Source: Promethearchaeota archaeon (GTDB lineage: Archaea > Asgardarchaeota > Thorarchaeia > Thorarchaeales > Thorarchaeaceae). From it: a stretch of 32,000 bases of DNA. The notes under the pieces were generated by a model. It had not been told where the DNA came from. It ran no database searches and saw only the letters and a program-made list of their open reading frames with translations. Shown one piece after another: positions 5,390 through 32,000 of this stretch (position 1 is its first letter; each line of letters starts with the position of its first letter). The stretch lies in contig JALVPN010000040.1 of assembly GCA_027031765.1 (NCBI GenBank), positions 121,536-153,535 on the forward strand. Direction: 5' to 3'. The translations under genes were made by a program, and so were the position numbers.

Positions 5390-5423
5390 GTATTGTTCAT
5401 ATAACAGGTAATACGCGTGATAC
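5390..5423. repeat. Heptad array: GTATTGT 5390, (ATATAAC 5399), GTAATAC 5408, GTGATAC 5417
   Basis: Read directly; 9-bp register. Confidence 0.6.
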
Positions 5424-5746: not shown

Positions 5747-5779
5747 TTAATACTCGTAATACTAGTGATACAGCAATAC
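5747..5779. repeat. Heptad array: TTAATAC 5747, GTAATAC 5756, GTGATAC 5765, GCAATAC 5773
   Basis: Read directly; offsets are 9, 9 and 8 bp. Confidence 0.65.
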
Positions 5780-6063
5780 GGCCAATCCACATCTACAGCA
5801 TGGTGAACCAGGAAGATTCAGCACCCGCTGCTGTTCTAAGATTAGAACTATGTATTCCTGTTGTCAAGAATATAGTGAGTGTGTCGTACCAGACAGAAGC
5901 ATATAGACCACGAGCAATCCAGTCCAACTGCACCGTCCAGCATCTCTATCTCCTCGGAACAGACCTCCAGATTTGGGTACGGTGTCAGAAGGACACTCAG
6001 GTCTGCAAGAGGTACGACACACTCGAGCCCGGTCTACACTCACTACAGGCCAGGCAGTTCTAG

Positions 6064-15886: not shown

Positions 15887-16133
15887 GACTAGACTCTCAA
15901 ACGTTCCACTGGCTCCTCTCCCCACTGTGCTGCTGTGCTGTAGAATAACATCAGGGTCACTCAGTACTCTCCTTAGGGCAGCCACTCTTGTGGCGCTGGC
16001 CCGGTTCTCACCTCCAGCAATGGAACTCTCATTGCGTCCTTGCCGGTTGAGTATCTCCTGCCTAGCAGTACTTGTTGCCACAACAACTTGTCTGGCGCGT
16101 GCAGTGGTAGTCGCAGTAGAGTTCCGGGGACTG

Positions 16134-16766
16134 CTACTCTGGCGCTTCCACTTGAATGCTGGCCAAGATGTCCTCAGCCCTCTTGATCTCCTTGGCGACC
16201 TCCTGGAGTTCGGTTCTGAGACGATATGTATAGCCCGTCCTGTTCCCGAATCTCTCTAGGTGTCCTTTCCCTCCATTCCACATCCTTGCCAGGTATGTAG
16301 ATGCTGTACTCTTTGGCAGCTTCTCCTTGAAGGTCGCCTCATATATTTCCGCCACATCAAGTGATGAGAACTTGCCGTGCTTGAAGGACGCATAGATGAC
16401 AAGGTGCATCTTCTCATAGGTGCTCATCGATTCTATGTCAACCGGGATTGTAGTTGTTTCCGCCTCCTCCTCAAACGCAAAGACGTATCCCGTGCTGGTT
16501 TCAAGGAACACCTTGAACTTCACCAGCATCTCCTCTACTGCCCCACCTTTGACCTGAAAGCTAGACTCCTCACCAGTGCTCTCATCTGAAACACGTACCT
16601 TGAAGTCAAATGGGGAGTCGGCGAGTGCAAGGATTCTCCTGAAGCGTGCAAGCGCCTCGTCCGGCGTAACATATCTACACTGGAAAATCTCCTTGAGGCC
16701 TGGTGCCGAGCTATAGGTGAACTCGTAGACATAACTGGTTCGTACCTTACCTGGCAAGCTCGTCAC
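16134..16766 (-). CDS. Hypothetical protein with a C-terminal winged helix-turn-helix; start may be TTG 16757
   Basis: C-terminal FSSLDVAEIYEATFKEKLPKSTASTYLARM...LERFGNRTGYTYRL is a wHTH pattern; AGGTGA RBS overlaps the GTG and sits 5 nt before the TTG. Confidence 0.8.
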   Translation of the reverse strand: MTSLPGKVRTSYVYEFTYSSAPGLKEIFQCRYVTPDEALARFRRILALADSPFDFKVRVSDESTGEESSFQVKGGAVEEMLVKFKVFLETSTGYVFAFEEEAETTTIPVDIESMSTYEKMHLVIYASFKHGKFSSLDVAEIYEATFKEKLPKSTASTYLARMWNGGKGHLERFGNRTGYTYRLRTELQEVAKEIKRAEDILASIQVEAPE

Positions 16767-16859
16767 CTTTTATTGATTCACAACATTAATTGCACACCCA
16801 TAAATTAAGTGTGAGTGTGTGAACAACCAGTATCTGCGTATGTGGCGTGTATTACGTGG

Positions 16860-16880
16860 TTGCCCTGTTTCGGAGGAAAG
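16860..16880 (-). other. Degenerate ORB-like element (CTTTCCTCCGAAACAGGGCAA on the minus strand)
   Basis: Shares TTCC..CGAAACAGGG with the other ORBs, only about 13/21 match; inverted relative to 17046. Confidence 0.4.
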
Positions 16881-17045
16881 ACATCTCTAGCACCCAGTTA
16901 TACACAGTATAGTGCGGTTCCGTCCGCATACGGCATTATCCACAGTGTTAGCCAACGATTCCAGCCTCCTTCCAACCCGTCGCAGTTTCACACTGTTATG
17001 ACCTCTGTGAACATGGAACCCACAAAGCATTGCTCTCCTAACCGT

Positions 17046-17066
17046 GTTCCACTGGAAACAGGGGGG
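17046..17066 (+). other. Origin recognition box (ORB): GTTCCACTGGAAACAGGGGGG
   Basis: Near-canonical ORB with a six-G string; 18/21 identical to 12610-12630. Confidence 0.8.
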
Positions 17067-17138
17067 TAGTTCGATTCACAAACACTTACAGCCGTATGAG
17101 TCCTGCACTGTGGCAAACGGGACTCCATATCCTCACGA

Positions 17139-17253
17139 ACTGCCGGGTGTTCACATAGAAGGCGCCAAACGGGCTGCAGTTCTGTGAATGCCTGTAACTG
17201 GGGTGAATGCTGTTGATTGTCAGTTGGACTGCCAAATGTTCACATCGAAGGCG
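17139..17253 (+). repeat. Imperfect 26-bp direct repeat ACTGCC-NNN-TGTTCACATNGAAGGCG (17139-17164 and 17228-17253)
   Basis: 22/26 identical; 89-bp period. Confidence 0.75.
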
Positions 17254-17353
17254 TGTCTTGGCACTCAATAGGGGCAAAGCCGCGCTCGGGGCCTGTGTAT
17301 CACACCACACCTTGTCATATGGTCTTGCAAGCTTGCAGCGACACGAGCTGGGT

Positions 17354-18574
17354 CTACAGGAAGTCCGTGCATATCACCCTGATGGCATCAAGCAGCTTCT
17401 CACAGTCCTCATGGGTGTTGTAACCGTGAATTGACACCTGCACGATACCCTCCTCGGACAGTGGTCGCACAAGCGGATGTGCACATAGGAGCCCACTTCT
17501 TACAGCTATGTCCAGTTGATCCAAGAAGAGTGCAACGTCGTGGCAGCTCATCTTGGTGCTCCCGTCTTCTATGTTGAAGCCTATTATAGTGGACTTGTCA
17601 TCAGGCATACCATATAGTTGTACCTGTGCATTCTCTTGAAGCCCTTCCACTATGTATCCCATAATGTGCTCTAAATGTCTGACGAGTCCGCGGCCGTGCA
17701 GCTCCTTGATGTAGTCAATTGCAGCCCCAAGGCCCGTTACTCCAGCTATGTTGAAGACAGCACCGGACTCAAATCTGTCCGGGGGAAGCGCCACCTCAAA
17801 AGTGTCTGACGAAACACCAGCCACCGAAGCGGCGCCAAGGACTCCTGGTACGAACTCCAATGCGCTTCTCCTGCTCATCCACTGTACGGAGATACCAGGT
17901 GGGCCCATTAGTCCAATGTTTCCTGAGAAGAGTGCTGCGTCCACCTTGATTGAGTTGACAAGCCCCGGCTCAAATGCGATGGATTGCGTGACGTCGACGA
18001 GTGTGAAAGCGCCATGCGACTTGGAAACATCGGCGAGTTCCCGTACGGGGCTCCTTCGTCCCAGTCCTACAGGCACATGACCGATTGTAACAATGCCGGT
18101 CTGTTCATCAACAGCACTTTCAAAGGTTTCGACATCAATCTGGCCGGTTTCAGAAACTGGTACGAAGCTCACTCTGAGCCCCAAGACCTGCGCAGCCCGG
18201 AAAGCGCTGACAAGTACTGAATGGTCCAGGTTCAGGCACACGACAATCTTGTTACGACCAAGCTCCTTCCATGGATAGCCGTATACGGTTGACGCTACAG
18301 CAGACTCCACTGATGCCTGGAAGGAAACCTCCGCAGCCTCTACACCCATGAATGCGGCAATGTGGCTCCGTGCACGTTCTAGTTCCTCATTCCCTTTCAC
18401 AGCCCGCCTATGTGCTCCTCTTCTTGACGAAACACATACCTCGTTCAAGAAGTGTGAAATTGAGTCAACTACAGTTCGTGGGACAAGTGTGGTGCTGGCA
18501 GAGTCAAAATATGCCAGCTCAGGGTGCTTGCGAAAGACTTCAAAGTCCGACTTGATATCCAGCCCTGTCGACAT
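17354..18574 (-). CDS. SufS/cysteine desulfurase-like class V aminotransferase fold lacking the PLP-binding lysine; start likely ATG 18574
   Basis: AYFDSASTT, SRRGAH, DHSV, LVDVTQS, RFESG and VRSGLLCAHPL are recognisable, but the SGHK motif reads SGNI. Confidence 0.85.
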   Translation of the reverse strand: MSTGLDIKSDFEVFRKHPELAYFDSASTTLVPRTVVDSISHFLNEVCVSSRRGAHRRAVKGNEELERARSHIAAFMGVEAAEVSFQASVESAVASTVYGYPWKELGRNKIVVCLNLDHSVLVSAFRAAQVLGLRVSFVPVSETGQIDVETFESAVDEQTGIVTIGHVPVGLGRRSPVRELADVSKSHGAFTLVDVTQSIAFEPGLVNSIKVDAALFSGNIGLMGPPGISVQWMSRRSALEFVPGVLGAASVAGVSSDTFEVALPPDRFESGAVFNIAGVTGLGAAIDYIKELHGRGLVRHLEHIMGYIVEGLQENAQVQLYGMPDDKSTIIGFNIEDGSTKMSCHDVALFLDQLDIAVRSGLLCAHPLVRPLSEEGIVQVSIHGYNTHEDCEKLLDAIRVICTDFL

Positions 18575-18627
18575 GGATTCGGCTTGCTCAGTGTTCCTTT
18601 TATTTGATGTGAACATAGCGCAGATGT

Positions 18628-19629
18628 ATGGACTTGCAACTCCCCCCCATAGAGGCGTTCATGCTGGTGACTCCGGAGGACTACATCTTTGAAGTCAAAG
18701 GTGTGTTACATCCACCCGGGCGAGTTGTGGCGTACCTGCGCTATGTCCCTAACGACGGTGGCCCTCGTGAAACCACTCACGGACTGCGGTACAAGAAGAT
18801 ATATGCCCTACGAGATAGAACAGAGTTTCTCCGCTCTCACGCCCCAGAATACCTCTGGTTCGACCCGTACTCCGGACGTGGACTACAGAGTGTGCCCATG
18901 AAGCGTATCGTGCGACTGCTCGACCCAACACGGGAAGTACAACAACGGCGCTCCATCAGCCCACTATACTTGGTGGCAGATGACCTCGTTGACTTCATTG
19001 CGGACGAGAGTGGTGTTCCGGGGGACTGTATTGGGTTGACAGGATCCTTGCTTTGCGGAATCTCGACACCGACTTCTGATATTGACATTGTTGTCTATGG
19101 GGCAACTGCTGGCCAGAAGGTATATGATGCAATAGGGGCCGTCGATGGTGATACGTTGCAGAGGTATCATGGCGAGGCCTTGGATAGTCTTGCACGTTCA
19201 AGGTGGGGCGGTCTTCCGGGGCTCATCGATATTCATCGTCACCTTGAAGCCCGAAAAAGGCTGCAAGGGTACTTTCATGGGTCTGAGTTCTTCATACGGC
19301 TCGTGAAGCTACCATGGGAGGTCGATGTGCAGTACGGTGATGTTTCATATACACCATTGGGCCGTGCGGAAATCCGTGACTGTGTGATAACAAGTAATGA
19401 GGATATGATATACACACCCTGCCTCTACGAGGTCGTGTCTAGCTCGTGGCCTGAGGTGAAAGAGATAGTCAGCTACCGTGGCCGCTTCACAGAACAGGCA
19501 TCAGTTGGTGACCGTGTAACCGTACGTGGGCGCCTTGAACGAGTGTTGCACCCCAACCGTGGAGAGTACTGGCGCATTGTCGTCGGAGAAGACCCGGCAG
19601 ACTATATGATTCCCGCCAGTGCTAGGTGA
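18628..19629 (+). CDS. Predicted pol-beta-type nucleotidyltransferase (COG1665-like, uncharacterised archaeal family)
   Basis: IFEVKGVLHPPGRVVAYLRYVP, GLTGSLLCG....SDIDIVVYG (GS...DxD motif), SYRGRFTEQA..GD.V.VRG.LE. Confidence 0.8.
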   Translation: MDLQLPPIEAFMLVTPEDYIFEVKGVLHPPGRVVAYLRYVPNDGGPRETTHGLRYKKIYALRDRTEFLRSHAPEYLWFDPYSGRGLQSVPMKRIVRLLDPTREVQQRRSISPLYLVADDLVDFIADESGVPGDCIGLTGSLLCGISTPTSDIDIVVYGATAGQKVYDAIGAVDGDTLQRYHGEALDSLARSRWGGLPGLIDIHRHLEARKRLQGYFHGSEFFIRLVKLPWEVDVQYGDVSYTPLGRAEIRDCVITSNEDMIYTPCLYEVVSSSWPEVKEIVSYRGRFTEQASVGDRVTVRGRLERVLHPNRGEYWRIVVGEDPADYMIPASAR

Positions 19630-19645
19630 TAATGTGCCTCCGATT

Positions 19646-19894
19646 TCACCCCAGACCGAACTGTGGGGGGTACATCACAAAGTACTGTACTACTATTGCG
19701 AGTAGAATGCCGCTCAGAACCAGTCCTTTGCCCTTGGAAGGGTTAACCTCTGTGAACCACAGGATTGCACCTACAAGTACAACTACGACAGCAGACACAC
19801 GTCCGACAAAGATTAGGAACTCCCAGATTTCAGCAAAGTGCACGGCGACCAGTGTAGCAAAGTCTGTCAACGGGCTTAGACATTCGATTGGCAC
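19646..19894 (-). CDS. Small two-helix membrane protein, TrbC/VirB2 (conjugative pilin)-like topology
   Basis: Perfect GGAGGTGA RBS 6 nt before GTG 19894; two hydrophobic helices joined by the loop TEVNPSKGK. Confidence 0.7.
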   Translation of the reverse strand: MPIECLSPLTDFATLVAVHFAEIWEFLIFVGRVSAVVVVLVGAILWFTEVNPSKGKGLVLSGILLAIVVQYFVMYPPQFGLG

Positions 19895-20084
19895 CGACAC
19901 TCACCTCCGTACTAGCAGGTCAATGCACCCGCTATTTCAACTAGGCACAATGGCACTGAAGGCCACGGGTCAGCCCGGCACAGGTTCACAACTCTCTCAC
20001 TGCACCTACTGATTTAAGCGCCCCCTGTCCACAGCCTATCAAGGCAGTGGTTATTAAGTGCCCGTTCTAGTTCGCAAGACAATG

Positions 20085-20091
20085 TTTTTAT
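20085..20091 (+). promoter_or_regulatory. Putative TATA box for rpsJ
   Basis: TTTTTAT about 55 bp upstream of ATG 20144. Confidence 0.4.
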
Positions 20092-20143
20092 CCTAACCCG
20101 GTTCAGCCCACCTGAACCCCGCAATGCAGAGATGGTGTGCCAA

Positions 20144-20455
20144 ATGACACAGAGAGCGCGAATACGCCTTTCAAGCACGAATATTGAAGACCTTGATAGT
20201 GTCTGTAATCAGATTAGACGAATAACTCGCAAGACTGGCGTACGCATGGCGGGCCCAATTCCTCTGCCAACCAGACGGATGGTCGTCCCCACGCGCAAGA
20301 CACCTTGTGGACAGGGGTCGGACACGTGGGACAAGTGGGAAATGCGGATTCACAAGCGTCTTATCGATATTGATGCAGATGAACGTGCAATTCGTCAGAT
20401 TATGCGAGTGCAGATTCCCGACTCCGTCTATATCGAGATTGAGCTGACAAGCTGA
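20144..20455 (+). CDS. rpsJ: 30S ribosomal protein uS10; start set to ATG 20144
   Basis: [45 protein letters not shown]; GGTG RBS at 20134. Confidence 0.98.
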
Positions 20456-20644
20456 CGTGTCGCATGTCCAGTCTACGGCATTGTGTATCCTCCGACCACC
20501 CACACCCGCCATACTCGGCGTCAAGCCGCCAATGCGCGTCCACGACGCGTCCTCAATTGGCCCGACGATACGCACCACTCGGCCCAAGACTTATCACTGC
20601 TCCTCGCTTGACAGATACGAATCACAGCTCCGGTGACATTCATC

Positions 20645-22468
20645 ATGTGCGGTATAATCGGCGTTGTTCAGGTTCGGGGTAACGTCGCTCCATTTCTCCA
20701 CCAAGCATTGAAACGTCTTGAATACCGGGGTTACGATTCGGTCGGCATCACCACTATTTCTGGGAACAAGCTGTTCGTGAAGAAGGATAAAGGCAAGATT
20801 GATGAGGTCCACAAGAAGCTCGACTTGGACGACTTGCCAGGGAGTGTTGGTATTGGCCACACACGTTGGGCCACACACGGAGTACCATCTCTCCTGAATG
20901 CTCATCCCCACTTCGACTGTACCGGTCAAGTTGCAGTGGTTCATAACGGGGTGATTGACAACTTTCTCGAGCTCCGACAAGAGCTCGCTGAACGCGGACA
21001 TGTGTTCAACTCGGAAACCGACACCGAGGTCATCCCCCACATGATTGAGGAGCACCTCCGTCAGGGTTGCAGTCTTGCAGCCGCCCTCAAGCACGTAACA
21101 ACAAGGATTCATGGCACGTATGCAATTGTCGCGATGTCAACAAGCGAGCCAGACAAGATTGTGTGCACGCGCGATGGCAACCCCTTGGTCATAGGGCGCG
21201 GTATGAACGCCTCATACGTTTCCTCCGACATTCCGGCATTTCTCCCTATGACAAACAGGATTATCCTCCTCCTCGACGGTGAGATTGCCATCATCACTGC
21301 AACCGAGGTCACCATCGAGAAGCTTTCAGATGGGGCGCCGGTTGTTCGAGATGTTGTAAAGATCAGCTGGACTGCTGACCAGGCACAGAAAGGTGGCTTT
21401 CCTCATTTCATGCTGAAGGAAATCCATGAGCAACCAGATGCAATACGCAATACACTCAGGCTGCGGCCTGATGTAATCCGCAGAGGTGCCGAGTTGTTAT
21501 CCGACGCGGCACGCATCTTCCTATTGGCAATGGGTACATCAGGTCATGCAGCGATGGCGGCACGCTACATGTTCTCGTCCCTTGCGAGAACTGTTCCCAC
21601 ATTTGAACTTGCAAGCGACTTTGCAGACATTGTCGGGCGCACCCTGACTGACCAGGACTGCATAGTGGCAATAACACAGTCTGGCGAAACTACTGATACC
21701 ATTTCTGCTGTGAAGTATGCACGGTCGTTCGGGACTCATGTCCTTGCCATTACAAATGTTGTCGGGAGCTCAATAACTCGCTTGGCTGACCACGTAGTGA
21801 TTACCCAAGCCGGCCCAGAAATCGGAGTCGCAGCCACCAAGACGTTTATGGTTCAACTCACTTCGCTTGCCCAGATTGCCCTTGCGCTTGGAGAAATGAA
21901 GGGGGTTCTCGATGCGGATGTCTTGCAGGACAAACGGAAGGCTCTTGAGGCAGTTCCGGACATTGTTTCCAACGTGATATCACTCCAAGAGGAGCGTGCG
22001 AGGAGACTGGCCGGCTTTTACTATGATGCCCCGAGTCTTCTCTTCTTGGGCCGTGGGATATCAATCGCTACTGCGAGGGAGGGGGCCCTCAAGCTCAAGG
22101 AAATTGCATACAACCACGCGGAGGCGTATTCTGCTGGCGAGTCCAAGCACGGTCCAATTGCGCTTGTGGAGCCGGGCTATCCAGTCATCTTTGTGGCGCC
22201 GCGTGATGAAACACACAGCAAGATTGTCGGCAACGTAATGGAGATGAAGGCAAGGGGTGCCTCCATAGTTTCGGTCATCGATTCGAGTGACCAAGAGATT
22301 GCGCACCTATCGGATCATGTCTTTGCTGTTCCTAGTGGCGTTCCCGCAGAGTTCTCTGTCATGCCGTATGTTGTCCCACTACAACTGTTCAGCTACTATG
22401 TTGCTCGTAGGAAGGGCTATGACCCTGACAAGCCAAGAAACCTTGCCAAGTCGGTTACGGTTCTCTAG
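20645..22468 (+). CDS. glmS: Glutamine--fructose-6-phosphate aminotransferase (isomerizing); start set to ATG 20645 (MCGI)
   Basis: N-terminal nucleophile MCGIIG, LEYRGYDS, GHTRWATHG, HNGVIDN, TQSGETTDT, EGALKLKEI, GESKHGP and the C-terminal RNLAKSVTV. Confidence 0.98.
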   Translation: MCGIIGVVQVRGNVAPFLHQALKRLEYRGYDSVGITTISGNKLFVKKDKGKIDEVHKKLDLDDLPGSVGIGHTRWATHGVPSLLNAHPHFDCTGQVAVVHNGVIDNFLELRQELAERGHVFNSETDTEVIPHMIEEHLRQGCSLAAALKHVTTRIHGTYAIVAMSTSEPDKIVCTRDGNPLVIGRGMNASYVSSDIPAFLPMTNRIILLLDGEIAIITATEVTIEKLSDGAPVVRDVVKISWTADQAQKGGFPHFMLKEIHEQPDAIRNTLRLRPDVIRRGAELLSDAARIFLLAMGTSGHAAMAARYMFSSLARTVPTFELASDFADIVGRTLTDQDCIVAITQSGETTDTISAVKYARSFGTHVLAITNVVGSSITRLADHVVITQAGPEIGVAATKTFMVQLTSLAQIALALGEMKGVLDADVLQDKRKALEAVPDIVSNVISLQEERARRLAGFYYDAPSLLFLGRGISIATAREGALKLKEIAYNHAEAYSAGESKHGPIALVEPGYPVIFVAPRDETHSKIVGNVMEMKARGASIVSVIDSSDQEIAHLSDHVFAVPSGVPAEFSVMPYVVPLQLFSYYVARRKGYDPDKPRNLAKSVTVL

Positions 22469-24137
22469 GCATGCTGTGTAGCCTCGACAGTATCTGTTGC
22501 GCATTCAATTCACCTCGATGTCCACGCATCCCCCGTAGTATCGTCCCCAATGCTTCACTGTAGATTTCCTCCGGGCTCATATCCCATTGCTCCCACGTAG
22601 CAGTTGCCATTGCACCGTCATCCGCCCACGGGATTGATTTCAAGGGTTCTTGACCAACCGCACAGAGTGTGTTGAGTCCCGCAAACTCAATCTGCCCCGC
22701 GACTTGTCGGCGACGGATTTCGGTGACTTCCTGAACCCTCCTTGGTGTTGTCGGGCCGAGCCGTCCGAGAGTGACTATGATATCCATATGTGCAATTGCT
22801 GAGAGCTCGACATGATGGCTCGTAGCCCACCGCGTTATCAGTGCCGAAGCGGAACCACTATGACATGTCTGTAGTGTCTTCAGTCCTGCAGTGACAGCTT
22901 GGAATAGCGCTCGGCTGTGCTCTGCAGTCTGGACTTCTCCCAGTATCAGGTAGTCTGGCGACCTGTGTAATGTCTTGACTATCTCATCGCTCTTAGAGAA
23001 GCCACCCGTCGCCTCATCGACAGGAGATACACGAAACCTTGCCTGGTGCTCTCCATCTCGGAGTCTGCTCTCAACCGCATCCTCTATGTATACCTTCCTC
23101 CACGCCTGTGGAACCACTGCGTCCAGAGCATTCAGTAGCGTCGTCTTTCCAGTTCCAGGTGCTCCGGTAATCGTTACATTGAGTCGCAGAACTATTGCCA
23201 TTGCCAGCAGGGCTGCGGTTTCTGGAATCATCGTTCCATTTGAAACCAGATCCAACAGTGAGAACTGTCTAGCTCTTGCTCTCCGGATTTGCATCTGAAA
23301 GCCGTCTGTGGCAAGCGGAGCGGTGGAAACCGCAAACCTAAGTGGCACTCCTGCTAGATGCAGGTCACACTTGAGTGAAGGGTTGCGCCTGTCAAGGTGG
23401 AGGTTACTCTCCGCCCGCAACAACGTCACCAGCTTTGGAATCAGTCCACGGGCCACCGAGAACCCTGCTACGCACCTGCCAAACCTCTGGTGGTCAAGGT
23501 AGACTGGCACATCTGGACGGTCAACATAGACTTCCTCTATGTGCTCGTCTAGGAATAACGGCATAAAAGGGCCCAGTGGGGTGCTCTCGTAGGCAACAAA
23601 CTGGGCAATCTTCTCCTTGGTTTCTGGCTGCAACTGTGGTATGACGCTCTCCAGATATCGAATCACCTGCCCCCTCACTTCAGTAATACGTGCGGAAAGC
23701 CTCACACGTCGGCTGACAAGTTCAGCGGTGCTCTGCACCACATGTGATTTTGCTTGTTGGAGCAGGGTATGCTCAAGATGAGAACGCAGACGCGGTATTG
23801 CGGAATATGTGGGTGTTGTAGCGTCATTTTCCTGTCGCACAACCACGAGGTATGGTTCAACCCGATACGCGTCCACAATACCTCTTGCCCATTCCACCGG
23901 ATTCCGGGTATGGGCAGCTACAGATACCGCCTCCCACTTTCCGCCAGTCCATGGGGCCATCACTTCGTCATCGCCCGTCGATGCGGGTATGTATAGCAGC
24001 TTACGATCTGGCTCAACTATAATGATTTGTCCGGCCCTGTCTGTTTCAGCAATGCGTATGCATTTCTTGCCCTGCCTTGACTTGCAGGAGGAGCATTCAC
24101 CTCGTGTGCAACTAATGACTGTTGCTCTCGGGGGCAT
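22455..24137 (-). CDS. VirB11/CpaF/TadA/FlaI-family secretion or pilus ATPase
   Basis: IEEVYVD, Walker A GAPGTGKTT, Asp box YIEDAVES, Walker B HRSPDYLILGEVQ and His box TLQTCHS; GGCGGTGA RBS. Confidence 0.9.
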   Translation of the reverse strand: MPPRATVISCTRGECSSCKSRQGKKCIRIAETDRAGQIIIVEPDRKLLYIPASTGDDEVMAPWTGGKWEAVSVAAHTRNPVEWARGIVDAYRVEPYLVVVRQENDATTPTYSAIPRLRSHLEHTLLQQAKSHVVQSTAELVSRRVRLSARITEVRGQVIRYLESVIPQLQPETKEKIAQFVAYESTPLGPFMPLFLDEHIEEVYVDRPDVPVYLDHQRFGRCVAGFSVARGLIPKLVTLLRAESNLHLDRRNPSLKCDLHLAGVPLRFAVSTAPLATDGFQMQIRRARARQFSLLDLVSNGTMIPETAALLAMAIVLRLNVTITGAPGTGKTTLLNALDAVVPQAWRKVYIEDAVESRLRDGEHQARFRVSPVDEATGGFSKSDEIVKTLHRSPDYLILGEVQTAEHSRALFQAVTAGLKTLQTCHSGSASALITRWATSHHVELSAIAHMDIIVTLGRLGPTTPRRVQEVTEIRRRQVAGQIEFAGLNTLCAVGQEPLKSIPWADDGAMATATWEQWDMSPEEIYSEALGTILRGMRGHRGELNAQQILSRLHSMPREP

Positions 24138-24649
24138 CAGTATTCACCGCCTGTCGGGGGCGTGTCGAGTATTACTGGGAATTTGACCGGCACCTGTGCC
24201 AGACGTACCTGTGTTTTGGTGTCAGACATGCTCCGCATGTCGACCCGGGATTGACTATGACGAGCGTAATCATTGGCGACTACAGCGCAGCAAGTCGAGT
24301 CCGCGTGCGCATCTCTCCAGCCAGATTCGGACTGAGCCGTAGCGAGTCGTCACATTGAGTTCTTTGGCCGAATAATAAAAGGGCCACCGAACGCGGATGT
24401 CATGTATCTCACAGCGTCACTCATACTACTGCCCTGCATTGATGGAATCTGGACGTTTCTGCTTGGTGACAGGCTGTGGCGCTGGTGGTACCTCTTGCAC
24501 AGGTTGTGTCAGAGTAGAGTTGGCGAGATATGACATCTGACCAACTACACGGTTGCTGTTTGCCTGTGTGCTTCCTGTTTGTTTGTGGTTTCTGAATTGC
24601 TGTAGTGTGTCGGCGTGTTTCGTTTTGAGGTCTGTCGGCTAGTCTGACA

Positions 24650-25702
24650 TCAAGGCATATGTGCATCGACAGTAGGTGAACTGTGATTGTCTGCACCATG
24701 ACGATTAACCGCATCCTGTGCGAGGACTCTCTTTATCACACCATAATGGTCTCGTATGCTATATTCGGCGACCTCTGTGGCCAATGATGCCAGCTTTTGT
24801 GTAAGTACAGCCCGCCGCCCGCTCTCTCTAGCCAACATCCGATCTGCAGCATACGCTACTGAGACTGCAAAGATGAAGGGGTTTCGACCACCACGTTTAA
24901 TACTCGGAATTCGGTCGAGTATTCGGCCCATAGTCTTTCTTAATTTTGCGCCGTAGTCATTCAGACCCCATCCACGCTGTGCGGCCTTTCGTACTACTGC
25001 CTCATTGTTCAACAACATCGACAGAACACGTGGCACATAGTCCTCTGGCCGTCTCAAATCCGGCGCGAACCCTGTTTCTAGCTTTAGTTTCATGGCCTCT
25101 CGGACTATAGCCCGCACACTCACGCGGTGCCCGCACCGTTCAAACGCGCTTGCCAGCTCCTCAAGAGTAATTGGCGCGTCATCTCTGAACTCACGAATTG
25201 CCACTAGGAGGCACACTGCCATCAACACTATATTGTTCGAGAAGCGTGCAGTCCCGTCCGCTGTAATCTTCTTGTACAAGTATGCTCCTCTGTCACGTAC
25301 CTGTCTTCCGAGCATCAACAGTTGCGCAACCCTGTTGAGCGTCCTCGGGGTCCGGTATCGAGTTTCGCACGACCCCACTCGCACACGTGCACCATATACT
25401 GCCTTTAGGCGCAGGAACCGCTTCTGAGTGCTCGCAGGCAGGGCCTTGCCACTGGCATCCCTAAAGTAACGATCTCTGTGATACCCTATGTAGCTGCCAA
25501 GCCCATCTACTATGTGCGGCCTGTTGCCCAGTGAAGCATACATGCTGGCATCTGGCCTATCGAGATCCTGTTCATCACCCAACTGATAGGTGGGCGATAC
25601 GTATTCCCGTGAAACAACGAGTCCACATTCTCTGCAAACAATATGACCGGCGCTAGTTGTCAGGAATCCCTGACATTCAGGACAACACCATGCCTCGAGC
25701 AT
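24650..25702 (-). CDS. Divergent transcription factor IIB (TFB) paralogue; start set to ATG 25702
   Basis: Zn ribbon CPECQG...VCRECGLV, two cyclin-like repeats, GRNP..FA..V.YAA, and a C-terminal HTH TQKLASLATEVAEYSIRDHY; GGAGG RBS 5 nt before the ATG. No EWR B-reader motif is visible. Confidence 0.85.
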   Translation of the reverse strand: MLEAWCCPECQGFLTTSAGHIVCRECGLVVSREYVSPTYQLGDEQDLDRPDASMYASLGNRPHIVDGLGSYIGYHRDRYFRDASGKALPASTQKRFLRLKAVYGARVRVGSCETRYRTPRTLNRVAQLLMLGRQVRDRGAYLYKKITADGTARFSNNIVLMAVCLLVAIREFRDDAPITLEELASAFERCGHRVSVRAIVREAMKLKLETGFAPDLRRPEDYVPRVLSMLLNNEAVVRKAAQRGWGLNDYGAKLRKTMGRILDRIPSIKRGGRNPFIFAVSVAYAADRMLARESGRRAVLTQKLASLATEVAEYSIRDHYGVIKRVLAQDAVNRHGADNHSSPTVDAHMP

Positions 25703-26168
25703 GTCGGCCTCCGCTATGACATGTTGGTCTTCGGTCAAGTACCACACCCAATACTCTGATGCTCCAATGACCTAACTACCTTCCACCATCAGTTTGTACG
25801 CTGGATGCCACACTGAAATCCCTTGAACAGGTCGGCTCGTCTGGCAGGTGACCTCCTACGGCCCACTCCGAATGAGAGGTGGGCGAAACTATTCGACCGA
25901 CAAAGTCATCGCCATGCTGATTAGCCCTCTTCGAGAGAACCCACCCCTACAGTTGCCCGCACCTCTCCTCTGTAACTGTAGACTCACTTGTCCCTTCAGT
26001 GCTTCCATCGCAGTCCCGTGTCCTCTCAACGCGGCCTGTTTCCGCCTGCAGCACCCAAGCGGCCCTAGGATTGGTGGGGCCGACACGTTCTCAGGCCACT
26101 CTTACCAGTCTTCAATGGTCTTCACTCTCAGGACAGAACTGCAAGACCACTCGAACTGCGCCCGTACG

Positions 26169-29100
26169 TTATTCCCATAGCAATGAGCTTGCACTAATGG
26201 CTTCCCATACAGTTGCCACTCTCAAATAGTCTGGCAGCATCATTCCGCTATCCAGATACTCTTCAGCCGACAAGATGCACACAATGCGATTCGTCGAACA
26301 CTCCCTGCACACCGCATCCGCACCGGTCTGTGCGAGCGTCTTGAGTCGCTCCTGACTTGGGAAGACGACTACCGATGTCTGTCCAGCACATATGTCATAG
26401 TTCTCGTGTCCTTTGCGCACATTGCCATAGGCACGCCTGAGCCGCTCCTCAAGTCTGACTATCACCTCATGTTTCACTTCTCCTAGAACCTTTGGTGTCA
26501 CTATCCAAAGACCTTCATCGAGCACCTCAAGTGCTACGTCCTGAATCCGGACAGCAACTAGCGTTTCATCTGCCAGCATCTCGACCAGTGCCTGACGTCC
26601 CTCTTCAATGTCAAGTGAAGTGACTCTACCCTTTGCAGACTGGGCTGCTGTTGTGTCAATGAACTGGACTAAGTCGTCCCATTCGACCCTGCCGTCTGCA
26701 GACTCTACAAAATCATGGAGGAGTTGAACCCATATCTTTTGCTCTGTCGCACGACTCATGGGTCTTGGTCGCCACTCCGCTATCGGACACATCAACGACT
26801 GCTCACCAGCTCGGCTGCCGCAATCCGTCGACGGCATGTCAGTGGCTACTTGGGCATCCCCAGCTCCAGACATGGTCATGGCCATTTCACCGTGATCCTG
26901 CTCCTCCTTGGATGGGGCGTCATGGGCCAACGCCTCGTCCACAACAGCATCAAGTGAAGATGCAAAGGCCGAAACAATCGTGACCGCATCGTATTCCTCC
27001 CCGTCGAGCAGCTCGCGAATCATGGTTGCCGCAACGCTTCCGCGCACTACTACCACTATGTTTTCGACCTCGTTTTCATGTCCAGAGCGTGTGTGAGCAA
27101 TCCTGTCAACTATCTCGTCCATCGTCCTCCTCTCAATGTGCTCCGGGACGACCATTACGAGTTGTCTATTGACAATCAGTTTTCTATTGTCAAGTCGTTT
27201 CACAGTCCCCCCTCTGCTCTTGACCGCCTCAGCGATGTACTCCATAATCACCCCGGCTACTGCTTCTCGCACCTTGCCCGCAAGCGCATACACAAACCCC
27301 CCTGCTGCAATGGCTATGGCCTCTCTTTCTAGCAGGCCGATTGCTAGCAGTTCATCGACTACCTCGTCAGTCCTTGCGCTTGGTATTATTCCCTCAATCA
27401 GGCTGCAAAGTGCGCTGTGCACAATTCCGGGCTTGACAGAGAGCCGTGCCGTAACAGATCTGACGACCTCGTCAAACAACGTGTCCGTCGCAATGGTCGT
27501 TCCACGTACTTCAGCCGTTTCTGCGTCTTGGTTCAGTGGTGTCACGGAGTCCTCGATTTCTGGGCTGTCTGTTGCATGAGAAGGCACAGCTCTGTCAACA
27601 CTCTTGAGAGGTTCTGTTTCGATTTCGAATGTTTCAGTACTGGGTATTGCGACAAGCGCATGTCCCCGTGGCATCACACGGAGGTACCTTTCCTGTTCGC
27701 TGTCAAGGGACATGTACCGTGCGCCAACAGCACTATCATACGGCAGTCGGAACATAATCCTAGTCGCAGCATTTGCAAGGATATTGGAAGAAACATTGGG
27801 CCGGGTTGACACGACAATAACTCCCTGACCTGTTGCTCTCTGTAGCAAGACCATAGACTCGCCCGTGCTCACATCAGCCGCATCTTGTCTAACATAGCTC
27901 TCTGGTACAAGGTTGCTTGCCTCCTCAAGTACGACTACATGCTGCAGCCCCCTTGCAAGACCACGCCTCATGCCATGGTCGAAAATCCTCTTTGCAACGA
28001 GGTTGTACAGTATGCGCGCGGCATCCATCCCTCCTACCATCGATACATATCTGAGGTCAAATACGACCCTCCGCCCCATCAACTCTGAGATTCTTATTGC
28101 GTCCTCCCCCCCTTTGAGGATTGACCCAAGTGGCTCCCGTGTTAGCACCCGAAGCCTGTTGACCAAGGCATCCCTTGTGAGCACGCCCACACCGCTAGCC
28201 TCGGCCACCCTCTCGACTATCATCTGCAACCCTCGGATAGACCCTTCATCAGACTGTACCGCCTCTAGCACGGCATCTGCTAGGAGACGCTCCATAGCGG
28301 GCGTCAACTCTGTAGACTCACTGCGCTCGTGCAGTAGCTCCCTGATAATCCTGAAGAGTGCATAGGCGTGTTGCTCCTCCTCTTCTCCGTCCTCCGCACG
28401 GAGGACATCGAGCACGACAGATGGGTCGAACCCAGGGGTCAGCACTGTCACATCATCGACTCCGTATGTGGAGAGGTCGGAGTACTCCGACCCTTTGACA
28501 TCAAAGATCCACCAAGGGACATCAGTCTTCTTACTGAGTTCCACCATCAGCGTCTTGACCATGGTGGTCTTGCCGGTTCCGGTTGCGCCTAGGACTAAGA
28601 CATGTTCAGTCAGCCACTCCGGCTGCAGCCCGACCGTTCTCAGCCTCCTTCCACGGAAAAGACAGTGCCCGATTACCAGCTGATTGTCAATCGCATCCGC
28701 TGGTGGTATGGGGAATGTCGGGACTCTGGCTGACGTCACTATTGGGAGCTGTTGGGTTGGAGGGCTGAAGTATGCAACGACCTTCTCGGCTGGCAAGCGT
28801 GTGGGTTGGATGTGCCGCCGTGTCACACGTCGTAACTGAGTACGCGTACTAGCTTTCATGTCCCTGACCTCGATTGTCCCGCTTCCTCCCCATATCGACA
28901 GTACAAGCCCCCTCATTGCGTCTAGGACAAGCGGATCATCGTTTCTGACTAAGACAATTGTCGTTGTGTCAAACCAGACGGCTTCGTTGGCAAGCGTTGC
29001 GTACTCCGATATGAGACGCTTCTTCAGCGCCTGATCCGCCAGACTGTCCTGGCTCCGCCGTTCTTTATCTCGAATTGACCTCCACTCGCTTTCCAGGTGC

Positions 29101-29981
29101 TTCCGCTCCTTTGAAGGCGCTGCCTTGGTGATTGTACATGACAGCGAAGCTGACCAACCCTGTTTCAGCAGAGTGGTCAGAAACCTGCCGACTTGGGAAT
29201 TCCCCCGGGTCATCTTGGCCATCGGGATACCACGAATGATGATACCCTTTTCTTTGCAGTGTCCGAGCTCCATCAGACCGCGGTCACCAGCAGCCTCACT
29301 TGAGCAGCTGCTCACTACTGCGCGTTGCAGTGCCTCCCCTGCCAGCATTGCTACTTGGGCACCATCAAACATTGTCAGCATTATGGCCTCCAGTCGAGTT
29401 GCCTCCCTCTGGAGCCCGTCCCTCAGCTCGGCTTCGGACTCGCCGACAAGCGTTACAACAATTCGCAAGAATGGGCTGCCCTCTGCAACGCCGGCCTCGT
29501 ATGTGACAGAAGTCCTGTTATCCATTCCCATGCGGATGGCAAGGAGCATCGATGTGTCATAGGTTGGCTGTTCCTCAGCTGTCAACTCCTCTATCTGGAG
29601 AGCCCCAAGCTGGAAGCATATACTACCAAAGACCTTGTTCCCCACTTCCACAAACAGGAACTCGCCATCTACAGAAACCACCGGCCTGTCGACAAGAAGA
29701 TGGATGACAGTCCTCATAGCTGCGGCGGAGGAAAGGCATCCACATATCAAGAGTTCAACCATGCGCCTTCCCGGGATGACGGGGACATGTGTGTCAGTGG
29801 CAAGCGGGATGAGATAGACCACCACCAGATAGCTTGTGCCAAAGATGAGTGCACACCACCATAATGCTGCAACAAAGGTCTCGAAACGCCTGTGTACATC
29901 ATGGAGTGCACCATCGTCCGAGTCTGCCCGGGACTCCTCGTACTTCTCTGGCTGCATCTGTAGTTGAGTGTCCACTGCCAT
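26169..29981 (-). CDS. Large membrane-anchored HerA/FtsK/VirB4-like (DUF87-type) ATPase with long N- and C-terminal extensions
   Basis: N-terminal hydrophobic helices; HVLVLGATGTGKTT Walker A, WWIFDVKGSEY, VVVLEEAS Walker B, GQGVIVVSTRP and ILANAATRIMFRL. Confidence 0.88.
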   Translation of the reverse strand: MAVDTQLQMQPEKYEESRADSDDGALHDVHRRFETFVAALWWCALIFGTSYLVVVYLIPLATDTHVPVIPGRRMVELLICGCLSSAAAMRTVIHLLVDRPVVSVDGEFLFVEVGNKVFGSICFQLGALQIEELTAEEQPTYDTSMLLAIRMGMDNRTSVTYEAGVAEGSPFLRIVVTLVGESEAELRDGLQREATRLEAIMLTMFDGAQVAMLAGEALQRAVVSSCSSEAAGDRGLMELGHCKEKGIIIRGIPMAKMTRGNSQVGRFLTTLLKQGWSASLSCTITKAAPSKERKHLESEWRSIRDKERRSQDSLADQALKKRLISEYATLANEAVWFDTTTIVLVRNDDPLVLDAMRGLVLSIWGGSGTIEVRDMKASTRTQLRRVTRRHIQPTRLPAEKVVAYFSPPTQQLPIVTSARVPTFPIPPADAIDNQLVIGHCLFRGRRLRTVGLQPEWLTEHVLVLGATGTGKTTMVKTLMVELSKKTDVPWWIFDVKGSEYSDLSTYGVDDVTVLTPGFDPSVVLDVLRAEDGEEEEQHAYALFRIIRELLHERSESTELTPAMERLLADAVLEAVQSDEGSIRGLQMIVERVAEASGVGVLTRDALVNRLRVLTREPLGSILKGGEDAIRISELMGRRVVFDLRYVSMVGGMDAARILYNLVAKRIFDHGMRRGLARGLQHVVVLEEASNLVPESYVRQDAADVSTGESMVLLQRATGQGVIVVSTRPNVSSNILANAATRIMFRLPYDSAVGARYMSLDSEQERYLRVMPRGHALVAIPSTETFEIETEPLKSVDRAVPSHATDSPEIEDSVTPLNQDAETAEVRGTTIATDTLFDEVVRSVTARLSVKPGIVHSALCSLIEGIIPSARTDEVVDELLAIGLLEREAIAIAAGGFVYALAGKVREAVAGVIMEYIAEAVKSRGGTVKRLDNRKLIVNRQLVMVVPEHIERRTMDEIVDRIAHTRSGHENEVENIVVVVRGSVAATMIRELLDGEEYDAVTIVSAFASSLDAVVDEALAHDAPSKEEQDHGEMAMTMSGAGDAQVATDMPSTDCGSRAGEQSLMCPIAEWRPRPMSRATEQKIWVQLLHDFVESADGRVEWDDLVQFIDTTAAQSAKGRVTSLDIEEGRQALVEMLADETLVAVRIQDVALEVLDEGLWIVTPKVLGEVKHEVIVRLEERLRRAYGNVRKGHENYDICAGQTSVVVFPSQERLKTLAQTGADAVCRECSTNRIVCILSAEEYLDSGMMLPDYLRVATVWEAISASSLLWE

Positions 29982-30182
29982 CCCAGATTTGTGTAGTTCT
30001 GCACTAATATGAACACCACACTTCTGGTCGCAGCACCATTTGTTCCCAGCCCAGTCCTGTGGCTCGCACAGCCTGCAAATGTGCTGTTTCTTTTGTGGGG
30101 CTTATATCCCTGAGTTCGGTAGCTACTCTAGAACCGAGTCTTGACACTGGCACAACCCAGCCATAGGGCAAGGTGTGTGATT

Positions 30183-32000
30183 GTGAGAATAGTTATCCCG
30201 TTGCTCCTGTGTATTGTCGCCCTTGTGGGTATCACTTGGCAGGTGGCATACTGTCGACAGGTGGTTGGAAATCCATCGACAGAGCCTACCGAGTCGGTAT
30301 TCCGTGGGGATGACATCCTACTTGCCGTACGGCTATTCCAAAACACCTCTTATCCTATCCAGCTCGCCGGCTTGCCAATTGAGTTCTATGACCAATCACT
30401 TGACCTGCTGATTGGTATAGCATATACTGACATCGAGGGCGTAGCCTCACTTGTCTGGCACATCCCTATCTGGCATCCCCTCGGCCCCACACTTGTCAAT
30501 GCGACTTTCCGTGGGAATGCCACCTTGGGTCTTGCCGCCTGCCACCAGTCTATGGACTATGTTGTCATGTTCCATCCTACTATTCAACTCAGTAGGTCAA
30601 CTTTCGTGGTGGCCGTTGGCGACAACTTCTCAATAGGTGTAGAGCTCCTCGACGACCAACAGGCCCCTCTAGCGGATCAGGTGGTTCGTCTTGTATGTAG
30701 GGGCACAATTCTTTCCGAAGGCACGACGAATGCCACGGGGTACAAAACCTTCCACATCCGGTGTACATCCACATGGGCTATGCAAGGGCAGAACGAGATA
30801 CTCGTAGTCTATGGCTCAAATACCACCACATTTGCTGGAAGCGCTCAGCAGAGCGTCGACGTGATTGTCCAGAAGATTGAAACACGACTATCAGTTGACT
30901 GGCCGTTCCCTGCATCCGTGTCCCTTGGTGACTTTTTCTCCTTGAACGTCAGTCTCCGCGAGGAAGACCGTCCAGTTCCATCTGCGCCACTCGAAATCCG
31001 GGTTGATGGAGTGCTCGTCAAGGTGCTCATGACTGACGAGTTCGGGCAGGCCACGCAGAACCTCCCTGTCGGCCCCGAATTCACGATTGGGGATCACAAT
31101 ATATCAGTATACTACGCAGGCAGTGACCGATATTCGCAGAGCGCAGTATCGTCTACCGTCCGGGTATACAGCCAAGCTGGCATCGCGACATATGTAGATG
31201 AACCCATCACTCTCGGGCGCGAGTGCTGTATGGTCGTTTCGGTGAGTGACCATTTCGGTCGCCCGGTGGAAAACCTGTCGGTCAACCTGTACGACCTCAC
31301 ACTGAATTTGACACTAGCACATCAGTCTGTCAACAGCAATAACACAACATTGTCCTTCATTGTACAGGGTGCTCCCGGGCCCCGGTACATCCAAGTCAGC
31401 GTCACTGGTAATGCATACCTCGTGAATGCTACTTGCAAAGTCCAGATTGTTGTCTGGCGTGCGACCTCGCTCGTCATTGTAGAAGAGTCCATTCTCGGAT
31501 ACGCCTATCCTGGACAGAGAGTGTTTCTTGCAGTGCAGTTGCTCTCAAGTGACAATCATTCCCTGCCTAGCAGGGCGGTGCATGCTCATTTGAATGAGGA
31601 TGTATCCTGTAGGCTCTATACGACAGACCCGTTGGGCCTCATCCGCTTTGAGTGCCGTGCACCATCGGTTCTCGGCTCTTACAACCTCACCCTGACCTAT
31701 CCGGGTCGACCCGAGAACTACGAACTCCCGGCGTCATTGGACTACTCTTTCCAAGTCACAAGATGTATTCCCACACGCATATCCGTTGGGAAGTGGGAAG
31801 TCGTTGAACCACTCAAGCTCCTCCAAGTTGAGGTACTGCCCCTCGCACTTAATGGATCCTTTGTGAACCACGCTATAGTCCTATTTGAGTGGCTCGGCTT
31901 TCGGGGTAGTGTCAGCAGTTGCGGACTTCCCGTCACCCTATCTCTTCCACTGCCAGACCGGCCTGGAAACCATTCACTCGTCCTTCGTCTTGCTGCAACA
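30183..32000 (+). CDS. Secreted or surface glycoprotein with tandem Ig-like (Big) repeats; 3'-truncated by the window edge
   Basis: Hand translation gives 606 codons without a stop (absent from the track because it has no stop). It has a signal-like VRIVIPLLLCIVALVGITW, repeats of the type PL.G..I.F......G...TD..G.A......P....G...I...Y.G, at least 15 N-x-S/T sequons, and an AGGTG RBS. Confidence 0.88.
   Translation, partial: MRIVIPLLLCIVALVGITWQVAYCRQVVGNPSTEPTESVFRGDDILLAVRLFQNTSYPIQLAGLPIEFYDQSLDLLIGIAYTDIEGVASLVWHIPIWHPLGPTLVNATFRGNATLGLAACHQSMDYVVMFHPTIQLSRSTFVVAVGDNFSIGVELLDDQQAPLADQVVRLVCRGTILSEGTTNATGYKTFHIRCTSTWAMQGQNEILVVYGSNTTTFAGSAQQSVDVIVQKIETRLSVDWPFPASVSLGDFFSLNVSLREEDRPVPSAPLEIRVDGVLVKVLMTDEFGQATQNLPVGPEFTIGDHNISVYYAGSDRYSQSAVSSTVRVYSQAGIATYVDEPITLGRECCMVVSVSDHFGRPVENLSVNLYDLTLNLTLAHQSVNSNNTTLSFIVQGAPGPRYIQVSVTGNAYLVNATCKVQIVVWRATSLVIVEESILGYAYPGQRVFLAVQLLSSDNHSLPSRAVHAHLNEDVSCRLYTTDPLGLIRFECRAPSVLGSYNLTLTYPGRPENYELPASLDYSFQVTRCIPTRISVGKWEVVEPLKLLQVEVLPLALNGSFVNHAIVLFEWLGFRGSVSSCGLPVTLSLPLPDRPGNHSLVLRLAAT

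Follow-up and report, generated by a model that had tools for sequence, protein, structure and literature searches.

The 32,000-nucleotide stretch analyzed here, which we call the window, corresponds to positions 121536-153535 of contig C40 (JALVPN010000040.1) in a thorarchaeal genome of 2.95 Mb that is 95%-complete (G000; in our working labels G stands for genomes, L for fetched loci, C for contigs and f for Asgard families). From position 19646 onward it carries genes for a VirB4-like membrane ATPase, a paralog of transcription factor B (TFB), a type IV filament (T4F) secretion ATPase, a small protein with two transmembrane (TM) segments that we named small84 and, on the opposite strand, a surface protein with immunoglobulin (Ig) repeats. 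All five of these open reading frames (ORFs) had been named in the original prediction, where they were taken for parts of a single DNA-transfer system with its own TFB, and the ORF listing placed each of them on the predicted strand. Our comparisons point, at about even confidence, to two distinct and vertically inherited membrane-ATPase modules that are neighbors in an origin-proximal region of Thorarchaeia: module A, centered on the VirB4-like ATPase, and module B, which comprises the TFB paralog, the T4F ATPase and the gene rpo8 located beyond the window.

Protein scans with Pfam and NCBIfam, run on 30 ORFs of the window and its flanks, recovered no integrase, relaxase or archaellin. The genes rpsJ (20132-20455) and glmS (20633-22468) are interleaved among the cluster genes, the remaining window genes are housekeeping (V-ATPase subunit D, ADP-forming acetyl-CoA synthetase, HypF, POR and saccharopine dehydrogenase), the GC content is flat across the window (0.51-0.56), and the large ATPase is found in 23 of the 24 genomes of the same family. 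The cluster is thus chromosomal and vertically inherited, and the earlier description of a non-mobile block, interrupted by rpsJ and glmS and free of relaxase, integrase and archaellin genes, was correct. Synteny within the family was assessed in 16 fetched Thorarchaeota loci, whose common order is small84 (-), glmS (-), rpsJ (-), an amino-acid kinase (+), the VirB4-like ATPase (-) and the divergent 693-residue Ig protein (+), continued by the T4F ATPase (-), the TFB paralog (-), an ORF of about 121 residues (-) and a second, divergent MG/Ig protein of about 900 residues (+). Differing rearrangements have affected the source genome and the loci L022 and L027, and the cluster genes nonetheless lie within about 12 kb of one another. 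Because housekeeping genes belong to the same conserved block, such synteny is not in itself a proof of function; for other families, synteny was assessed in 14 Asgard loci.

The VirB4-like ATPase (26169-29981, minus strand; 1270 aa) contains a P-loop domain of the DUF87/HerA-FtsK-TrwB type at residues 437-594 (Pfam, 51 bits). Two N-terminal hydrophobic segments, at about residues 35 and 74, belong to a TM hairpin (~35-95) that is followed by an N-domain (~100-420), the DUF87 motor (~420-800) and C-terminal units (~830-1270). The gene is present as a single copy in the 23 family genomes (37-45% identity), and full-length relatives occur in many Asgard families. A fold model of residues 90-800, with a predicted local distance difference test (pLDDT) score of 82, was matched best in Foldseek by the full-length TrwK/VirB4 of R388 (E 1e-20 over about 800 aligned columns), followed at lower ranks by S. 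solfataricus HerA (3e-14), the VirB4 C-terminal domain alone (4e-13) and TrwB (1e-11). The motor domain is RecA-like, with nearly tied VIA Z scores of 29.9 for DptH-C, 29.4 for VirB4, 27.6 for TrwB and 26.6 for HerA, and it superimposes on VirB4 of T. pseudethanolicus (4ag5; Z 29.4) with a root-mean-square deviation (rmsd) of 3.0 Å over 333 aligned residues. Moreover, the nearest ESM Atlas models are bacterial DUF87, TraG-P-loop and TrwB-type proteins of 880-1000 aa. Judged from these models, the big ATPase is VirB4-like by fold, and the original description of a membrane HerA/VirB4-like ATPase agrees with both its TM hairpin and its best structural match. A kinship with the NurA-associated repair protein HerA, which had been raised as a possible objection, found no support, since no nurA, mre11 or rad50 gene adjoined the VirB4-like gene in the 20 loci inspected, where its neighbors were an amino-acid kinase, rpsJ, Ig-repeat genes and other housekeeping genes. 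The score of the curated HerA model was also far below its cut-off, and the genome holds 5-6 other DUF87 genes, any of which could encode the repair HerA. One in-frame TAA was observed in the orthologs of two genomes, G011 (C28:36924-40574) and G012 (C28:82411-86106), and may reflect an error of sequencing, a gene that is split or one that has recently become a pseudogene.

The C-terminal 480 residues were modeled (pLDDT 80) as two units, each composed of a winged helix (Z 8-9 for the two winged helices) and an α/β domain, and they are well conserved (mean column identity 55%) and include invariant Cys and His residues; Foldseek with this model gave no match at E ≤ 0.001. A nuclease reading of the α/β domains was discarded because these domains, which have no clear assignment, resemble flavodoxin-/CheY-like folds at least as well as they resemble the nuclease domains of Can2/VC1899 (Z 8-9). 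For the N-domain, none of 39 members matched a Pfam family. In its succession of a TM anchor, a motor and winged helices at the C-terminus the protein resembles FtsK/SpoIIIE, and it could accordingly be viewed as an FtsK-like chromosome translocase acting in segregation or division near the origin, with small84 and the Ig protein as unrelated neighbors, a view with which the single-copy, near-universal occurrence in the family and the position of an Orc1/Cdc6 gene about 8 kb downstream (G000:C40:159907-161106, about 8 kb past the window end) would agree. However, the FtsK motor scored Z 17.7 against 27-29 for VirB4, TrwB and HerA, no full-length homolog was found in families f3, f14 and f21, which would be odd for an essential segregation factor, and the small84-ATPase operons of two families described below favor a partnership of the type IV secretion system (T4SS) kind. 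An FtsK-like role is highly improbable on this balance.

The product of small84 (19646-19900, minus strand; 84 aa) is a two-TM hairpin of VirB2/TrbC-like architecture and belongs to a multi-copy Asgard family. Orthologs from 14 family genomes share 65-78% identity, and their alignment displays an amphipathic N-terminus, TM1, a short basic Arg/Lys loop, TM2 and a terminal Pro. No Pfam or NCBIfam model matched it, including PF04956 and PF18895, and a PDB sequence search with the family profile returned nothing, while the named-family neighbors listed by an ESM search were all of the T4SS-pilin type (TrbC, T4SS_pilin, DUF3852, DUF2976 and DUF4134; 0.83-0.87), which we regard as a lead. The VirB4-like gene is preceded on the same strand by a small84 homolog in family f15 (locus L077, 62 bp upstream) and in family f4 (L081, 28 bp upstream), and such homologs lie at distances of about 5 kb from it in f12 and 3-6 kb in f1. 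The earlier naming of a VirB2-like pilin can therefore be kept in the sense of a pilin-like architecture and pilin-type language-model neighbors, together with this position immediately ahead of the ATPase gene in f15 and f4. Further small membrane ORFs were seen upstream of the VirB4-like gene in L032 and L090. Besides a copy on contig C110, the source genome has a duplicated form on C144 (36168-36716, minus strand), a 183-aa ORF with two tandem small84-like domains and 4 TM segments (profile E 2e-7), whose gene call is uncertain owing to its overlap with a 187-aa ORF on the opposite strand; at least 8 more Thorarchaeota genomes encode similar duplicated forms of 171-197 aa. By analogy with CedA and CedA1, the duplicated form could be a channel-like relative of small84.

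The Ig/MG-repeat protein (30141-32000, plus strand, ending 222 nt past the window; 693 aa) is a secreted or anchored glycoprotein with matches to Big_3_5 (50 bits) and MG4. Its gene is divergent from the VirB4-like gene in 15 of the 16 family loci and in a sister family (L029), the exception being L027, where the two genes adjoin on the same strand. The large, divergently transcribed glycoprotein first described is consequently present and divergent, and it proved to be mid-sized. Orthologs within the family are only 26-34% identical, which indicates a fast-evolving protein. In the intergenic region, a promoter-like element (GGTGTTCATATTAG, 30004-30017, minus strand) is located about 23-36 nt upstream of the VirB4-like ATG of the source genome. 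At orthologous positions in L013-L025 the family consensus is GGGG[T/A]GTTCATATG, a k-mer count places the TTCATAT core in 10 of the 17 upstream regions, or in about 13 of the 16 readable ones when near-variants are admitted, and the genome of origin contains only 5 loose copies of the element, none of them at the other cluster genes. It may correspond to a B recognition element (BRE) and TATA promoter, to go by the sequence, with a G-rich upstream part unlike the canonical BRE. A palindromic reading (GTTCATATGAAC) was rejected, as only one half is present in the source genome and its 3 matches in the window are at chance level (8 of 100 shuffles reach 3). The promoter-like element was the only one recovered by k-mer footprinting across 17 genomes, which detected no motif common to the cluster genes and so gave no backing to the idea of a TFB dedicated to this cluster.

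Module B begins with the T4F ATPase (22455-24137, minus strand; 560 aa), a protein of the GspE/CpaF/FlaI type that matches T2SSE with 82 bits. Its PDB sequence matches were archaeal GspE (2oap, 2.6e-25), CpaF (2e-18), FlaI (8e-15) and, further away, VirB11 (about 1e-6), and the VirB11 model TIGR02788 scored 68.6 bits against a cut-off of 250, so the former label of VirB11-like ATPase does not fit a protein that is closest to GspE, CpaF and FlaI and has a TadC-like platform of its own. A C-x4-C-x2-C-x7-10-C cluster is present at the N-terminus of all Thorarchaeota orthologs, and Cys residues are abundant in the long forms of other Asgards too. Orthologs were identified in 110 of 121 Asgard genomes, with one best match in each and 31-47% identity. 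It is the only T4F-type ATPase of its genome, in which one other T2SSE match, weaker and 432 aa long, was seen right after the tRNA-splicing endonuclease gene EndA (G000:C40:173117-174415, plus strand; L049:3118-4416). This second ATPase may be of the MJ1533-like class, which has been assigned to RNA/DNA metabolism and not to secretion (Makarova 2016, PMC4858521).

The neighboring TFB paralog (24650-25747, minus strand) combines a zinc ribbon (CxxC...CxxC) with two cyclin folds, the zinc ribbon and a TFIIB cyclin repeat being matched by Pfam at 19.8 bits each and hence under the gathering scores. The GTG at 25747 is a likelier start than position 25702, as judged from the sequence, because orthologs open with the same MW(F/S)L residues; the original prediction, which had used the latter, was right about the nature of the gene. 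The NCBIfam TFB model (NF001658) gave 56.5 bits against a cut-off of 384, well below a canonical TFB, and the genome holds 4-6 canonical TFBs besides, four of them scoring 391-456 bits, from which it follows that the gene is a true divergent paralog. Residues C22, C25, C38 and C41 are invariant in its family, and the family profile matched human TFIIB from the zinc ribbon onward (4e-15, profile 23-245), the TFIIB core domains over both cyclin folds (4e-13, profile 118-329, chain residues 7-188) and the archaeal TFB core (1e-10), with weak matches to Brf2 and Brf1 as well. When the AEYSIRDH signature was sought in 185,579 species genomes, a scan within whose reach Thermoproteales did not fall, 121 relatives were returned, and the titled records among the 80 listed were all Asgard (Thorarchaeota, Jordarchaeia, Freyarchaeota and other Promethearchaeota) except for one 2-kb contig labeled Thermoplasmatota. 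This contig (L171, JBNVCE010000141.1, 2112 nt) encodes a TFB-like ortholog at 39% identity and is most likely a mis-binned Asgard contig.

The third member of module B, rpo8, encodes an Rpo8/Rpb8 homolog of about 121-130 aa and was recognized with a family profile about 1.6 kb past the window (G000:C40:155172-155756, equivalent to L033:2173-2757, minus strand), where the ORF was called at 194 aa with the real start near Met65. Against PDB sequences the profile matched S. pombe Rpb8 (1.7e-7) and archaeal Rpo8/RpoG (7e-5 to 4e-4), while Pfam barely detects the protein (PF16992, E 0.04), and it is the only such gene of the source genome. The identification of the ORF of about 121 residues as Rpo8 implies that rpo8, TFB-like gene and ATPase represent an ancestral transcription order in Thorarchaeota. 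This order was observed in 15 of the 16 family loci, the TFB-like gene not being found in L027, and Rpo8-like homologs precede the TFB-like gene also in L050 and L058. In the other-family loci, a TFB-like ortholog (E 1e-53 to 1e-85, compared with only about 1e-15 for canonical TFB models against the TFB paralog) stands beside the ATPase or at most 3 kb from it in 12 of 14 cases.

Downstream of the ATPase, other Asgard families have two proteins of about 280 aa (4 TM) and 220 aa (3 TM), or a fused form of about 500 aa with 7 TM segments. The only T2SSF protein of the source genome (C196:5546-7075; Pfam 31-35 bits) has two halves homologous to these 4-TM and 3-TM proteins, and this platform lies about 650 kb from the TFB-ATPase pair in the closed Thorarchaeota chromosome CP070658.1. 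A prepilin peptidase of the A24 family was located at C144:76040 (53 bits), and no pilin was found with PF07790 or PF04021, two models that match in few control genomes. A complex prediction for the TFB paralog and the ATPase gave a score of 0.00, which speaks neither for nor against binding. Taken together, the TFB paralog, rpo8 and the T4F ATPase constitute a separate, phylum-wide module.

A comparable arrangement has been reported for subclade 4D of Pyrobaculum and Thermoproteus, in which a secretion ATPase bearing an extra Cys-rich domain at its N-terminus, a 4-5-TM and possibly TadC-derived protein, a TFIIB homolog and RPB8 form one predicted operon without pilins (PMC4858521), and its authors proposed a role in "some transcription-related pathway" (Makarova, Koonin, Albers 2016, PMC4858521). 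A 2026 survey recorded 4D-specific components in 17 Asgard genomes and judged them scattered and unlikely to act together (PMC13705601), which would suit the notion that the genes of our locus are not functionally coupled, that is, that the only T4F motor of the cell, one of several TFB paralogs, a housekeeping rpo8 and a VirB4-like relic are held together by slow rearrangement. The housekeeping genes within the conserved block and the location of the prepilin peptidase elsewhere, on C144, would fit this as well. Nevertheless, the TFB-ATPase adjacency persists across families at 31-43% ATPase identity while all other flanks differ, the TFIIB-ATPase-RPB8 arrangement recurs in a different phylum, and the invariant Walker motifs and conserved 480-aa C-terminus (55% mean column identity) of the VirB4-like protein indicate that it is under selection and no relic. 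Mere adjacency is thus quite unlikely, and throughout the Asgard phylum the TFB gene and the ATPase gene keep a tight linkage, contrary to the scattered view of the survey.

Whether the two modules form one apparatus depends on how firmly they are linked to each other. A single integrated system would combine an Ups-like T4F contact device with Ced-like DNA transfer by the VirB4/VirB2-like pair, both switched by the TFB paralog, a combination with a precedent in the TFB-switched contact and DNA transfer of Ups pili, the Ced importer and TFB3 (PMC6101591, PMC9905601). In its favor, at least 3 different rearrangements (G000, L022, L027) have left all parts within about 12 kb of one another in 16 Thorarchaeota genomes, and Ig-repeat surface proteins recur beside both modules. 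On closed or long contigs of other families, however, the VirB4-like gene is far from the ATPase/TFB pair (270 kb in G030, 70 kb in G028, 53 kb in G036), the modules are unlinked in G060 too, and outside Thorarchaeia the VirB4-like gene sits among varied and unrelated housekeeping genes. Furthermore, the TFB-ATPase pair occurs in f3 and f21, where no full-length VirB4-like gene was found, no common promoter motif emerged, no pilin was recognized with PF07790 or PF04021, and the inclusion of rpsJ, glmS and the amino-acid kinase in the block means that inherited synteny alone can explain the adjacency in Thorarchaeia. We consequently consider one integrated system unlikely. The original proposal of a single DNA-transfer system retains its VirB4-like/VirB2-like pair, and its ATPase and TFB belong to another module that is usually distant outside Thorarchaeia; the synteny comparison suggested along with it showed linkage in Thorarchaeia and its loss in the four genomes just named.

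The reading as two modules, A and B, has several observations to answer. The modules lie within about 10 kb in every Thorarchaeota genome examined despite the rearrangements, and outside this group they are 7.5 kb apart in G063 and 15 kb apart in G065 and G106, within a range of 7-25 kb that includes G062 and G117; this persistent proximity in Thorarchaeota and moderate proximity in several families mean that a functional tie between them may exist. As regards module A, the likeness of the N-domain to the N-terminal domain of VirB4 consists of one long alignment (590 residues over model positions 1-711) at an rmsd of 20.8 Å, and the curated models scored well below their cut-offs: TIGR00929 (VirB4) 19.4 bits against 643, CedB (NF041017) 21.7 against 700 and CedD (NF053655) 28.5 against 600, the last with an alignment spanning the whole motor (aa 448-782). 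No VirB6/CedA-like channel gene with 6-7 TM segments was recognized beside the VirB4-like gene in any locus, and the sole 10-TM neighbor of a VirB4-like gene is a UbiA family protein. The pilin likeness of small84 is a lead drawn from architecture and language-model scores under 0.9, and its family has 1-5 copies per genome, most of them among housekeeping genes. For module B, the features of subclade 4D are all represented, and the relation to arCOG05558 and arCOG05559 is one of architecture.

If the two modules are distinct, the 1270-aa protein of module A would be a membrane-anchored hexameric motor of the VirB4 type whose C-terminal winged helices suggest DNA handling, and it would work with the small84 family and perhaps with the divergent Ig-repeat surface protein. 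The whole could represent an apparatus for envelope translocation, domesticated from a T4SS and analogous to Ced/Ted. What we could establish is the fold of the ATPase and the order of its domains, its vertical inheritance and, in other families, its adjacency to small84 in operons; DNA as the substrate, a direction of transport and the formation of a pilus are what these findings would lead us to infer. Module B, composed of rpo8, the TFB paralog, the Cys-cluster T4F ATPase and the distant TadC-like platform, may be the Asgard counterpart of the pilin-less 4D system. Established for it are the linkage across the phylum, the place of the TFB paralog in the TFIIB fold family, the identity of Rpo8 and the homology of the platform, and the TFB paralog would most likely steer RNA polymerase to dedicated promoters with an activity tied to the membrane ATPase machine. 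A bolder proposal, which we rate as very unlikely, is that Asgard archaea and Thermoproteales share, in this module, a membrane machine coupled to transcription, whose hexameric ATPase holds, releases or loads a dedicated TFIIB-family initiation factor in an anti-sigma-like or transertion-like manner, so that an envelope signal reprograms RNA polymerase; the factor would be an early paralog in the lineage that later gave rise to Brf/Rrn7, and its regulon in Thorarchaeia would include the VirB4-like/pilin-like apparatus.

Several other observations concern the surroundings of the two modules. In the source genome, a specific rearrangement (22455-29981, relative to L013-L028) moved the TFB-like/ATPase block, formerly next to rpo8, across the VirB4-like gene to its opposite side, and the glmS-rpsJ pair is inverted relative to the same loci. 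The spacer between the TFB and ATPase genes measures 512 bp, compared with about 75-220 bp in relatives, and after this growth the T4F ATPase may have its own promoter. In 6 of the 14 other-family loci (L050, L053, L054, L056, L057 and L063), the 16 kb that hold the TFB-like/ATPase pair also include an Orc1/Cdc6 gene, so that module B may be origin-proximal across the Asgard phylum, and a shared origin-proximal position may explain part of the co-location of modules A and B. The second MG/Ig ORF (L033:2749-5484, plus strand; 911 aa) ends in about 150 Ser/Arg-rich, low-complexity residues that overlap the opposite-strand POR gene (5049-6374), and it probably has its true C-terminus earlier, or else contains a frame error. 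Large secreted or anchored proteins adjoin either module in other Asgard families as well (L054:8551-11481, minus strand; L056:10720-13632, plus strand; L089:9571-11253, plus strand); they have an N-terminal signal, a C-terminal TM segment and weak Ig/invasin-like matches, and no sequence similarity to the Thorarchaeota Ig proteins was detectable. An Rfam scan of positions 16000-32000 revealed no RNA family.

Hardly anything is known of the surface and gene-exchange machinery of Asgard archaea, the closest known relatives of eukaryotes. That many Asgard lineages conserve a chromosomal VirB4-type motor together with a pilin-like protein makes a Ced/Ted-like apparatus for DNA exchange or contact testable in these organisms. 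Besides, the association of TFIIB, ATPase and RPB8, noted in 2016 for just two genera of Thermoproteales, is conserved across the Asgard phylum, and this linkage makes it a candidate for an ancient connection between a membrane ATPase machine and transcription initiation. Two annotations can also be corrected, as the small ORF beyond the window encodes Rpo8 and the gene called VirB11-like encodes a type IV filament ATPase. A literature search returned nothing relevant on HerA or pilins in Thorarchaeota; both modules, the one like Ced/Ted and the one like subclade 4D, are not described before in this form in this lineage, and the type of module B is already in the literature, where it is uncharacterized, and is older and phylum-wide.

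Compared with subclade 4D as published, module B shares the N-terminal Cys-rich ATPase, the TFIIB homolog, RPB8, a short and diverged TadC-like partner and a locus without pilin. It differs in that the Asgard TFIIB homolog has two cyclin folds whereas arCOG05559 was described with one, the ATPase keeps a long C-terminal part, and the platform is recognizable as T2SSF (31-35 bits) and lies about 650 kb away in Thorarchaeia. Moreover, the Asgard family is phylum-wide, and its TFB-like signature was found only in Asgard genomes by a scan that did not reach Thermoproteales.

Module A most resembles the Ced system of Sulfolobales and the Ted system of Thermoproteales, in which the small proteins CedA1/TedC accompany the CedB/TedB ATPases (PMC9905601) and of which CedB and CedD are VirB4 derivatives (PMC11868833). 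Like them, it is chromosomal and vertically inherited, lacks a relaxase, consists of an anchored VirB4-like ATPase and one or more small two-TM proteins of VirB2-like architecture, and can have its components split between loci. Unlike them, the Asgard loci contained no CedA/TedA gene (VirB6-like, 6-7 TM) and scored under the curated cut-offs for CedB and CedD, and the Asgard ATPase has about 480 extra C-terminal residues, a divergent Ig-repeat protein beside it and no known link to UV or DNA damage. With bacterial VirB4/TrwK, including VirB3-VirB4 fusions, and the large DUF87 conjugation ATPases of Bacillota (800-1000 aa), the protein shares the motor fold and possibly that of the N-domain, and its N-terminal TM hairpin occupies the position of VirB3. 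In contrast to the bacterial VirB4/TrwK genes, the Asgard gene lies off mobile elements and has no other mating-pair formation genes, coupling protein or relaxase around it.

The TFB3 protein of Sulfolobales is a truncated factor that acts with TFB1. As with TFB3, the paralog of module B is one that could control envelope and DNA-exchange genes, but the analogy first drawn between the two does not extend to their construction, since the Asgard paralog is full-length, with the zinc ribbon and both cyclin folds, is distributed throughout the phylum and has its gene between rpo8 and that of a secretion ATPase.

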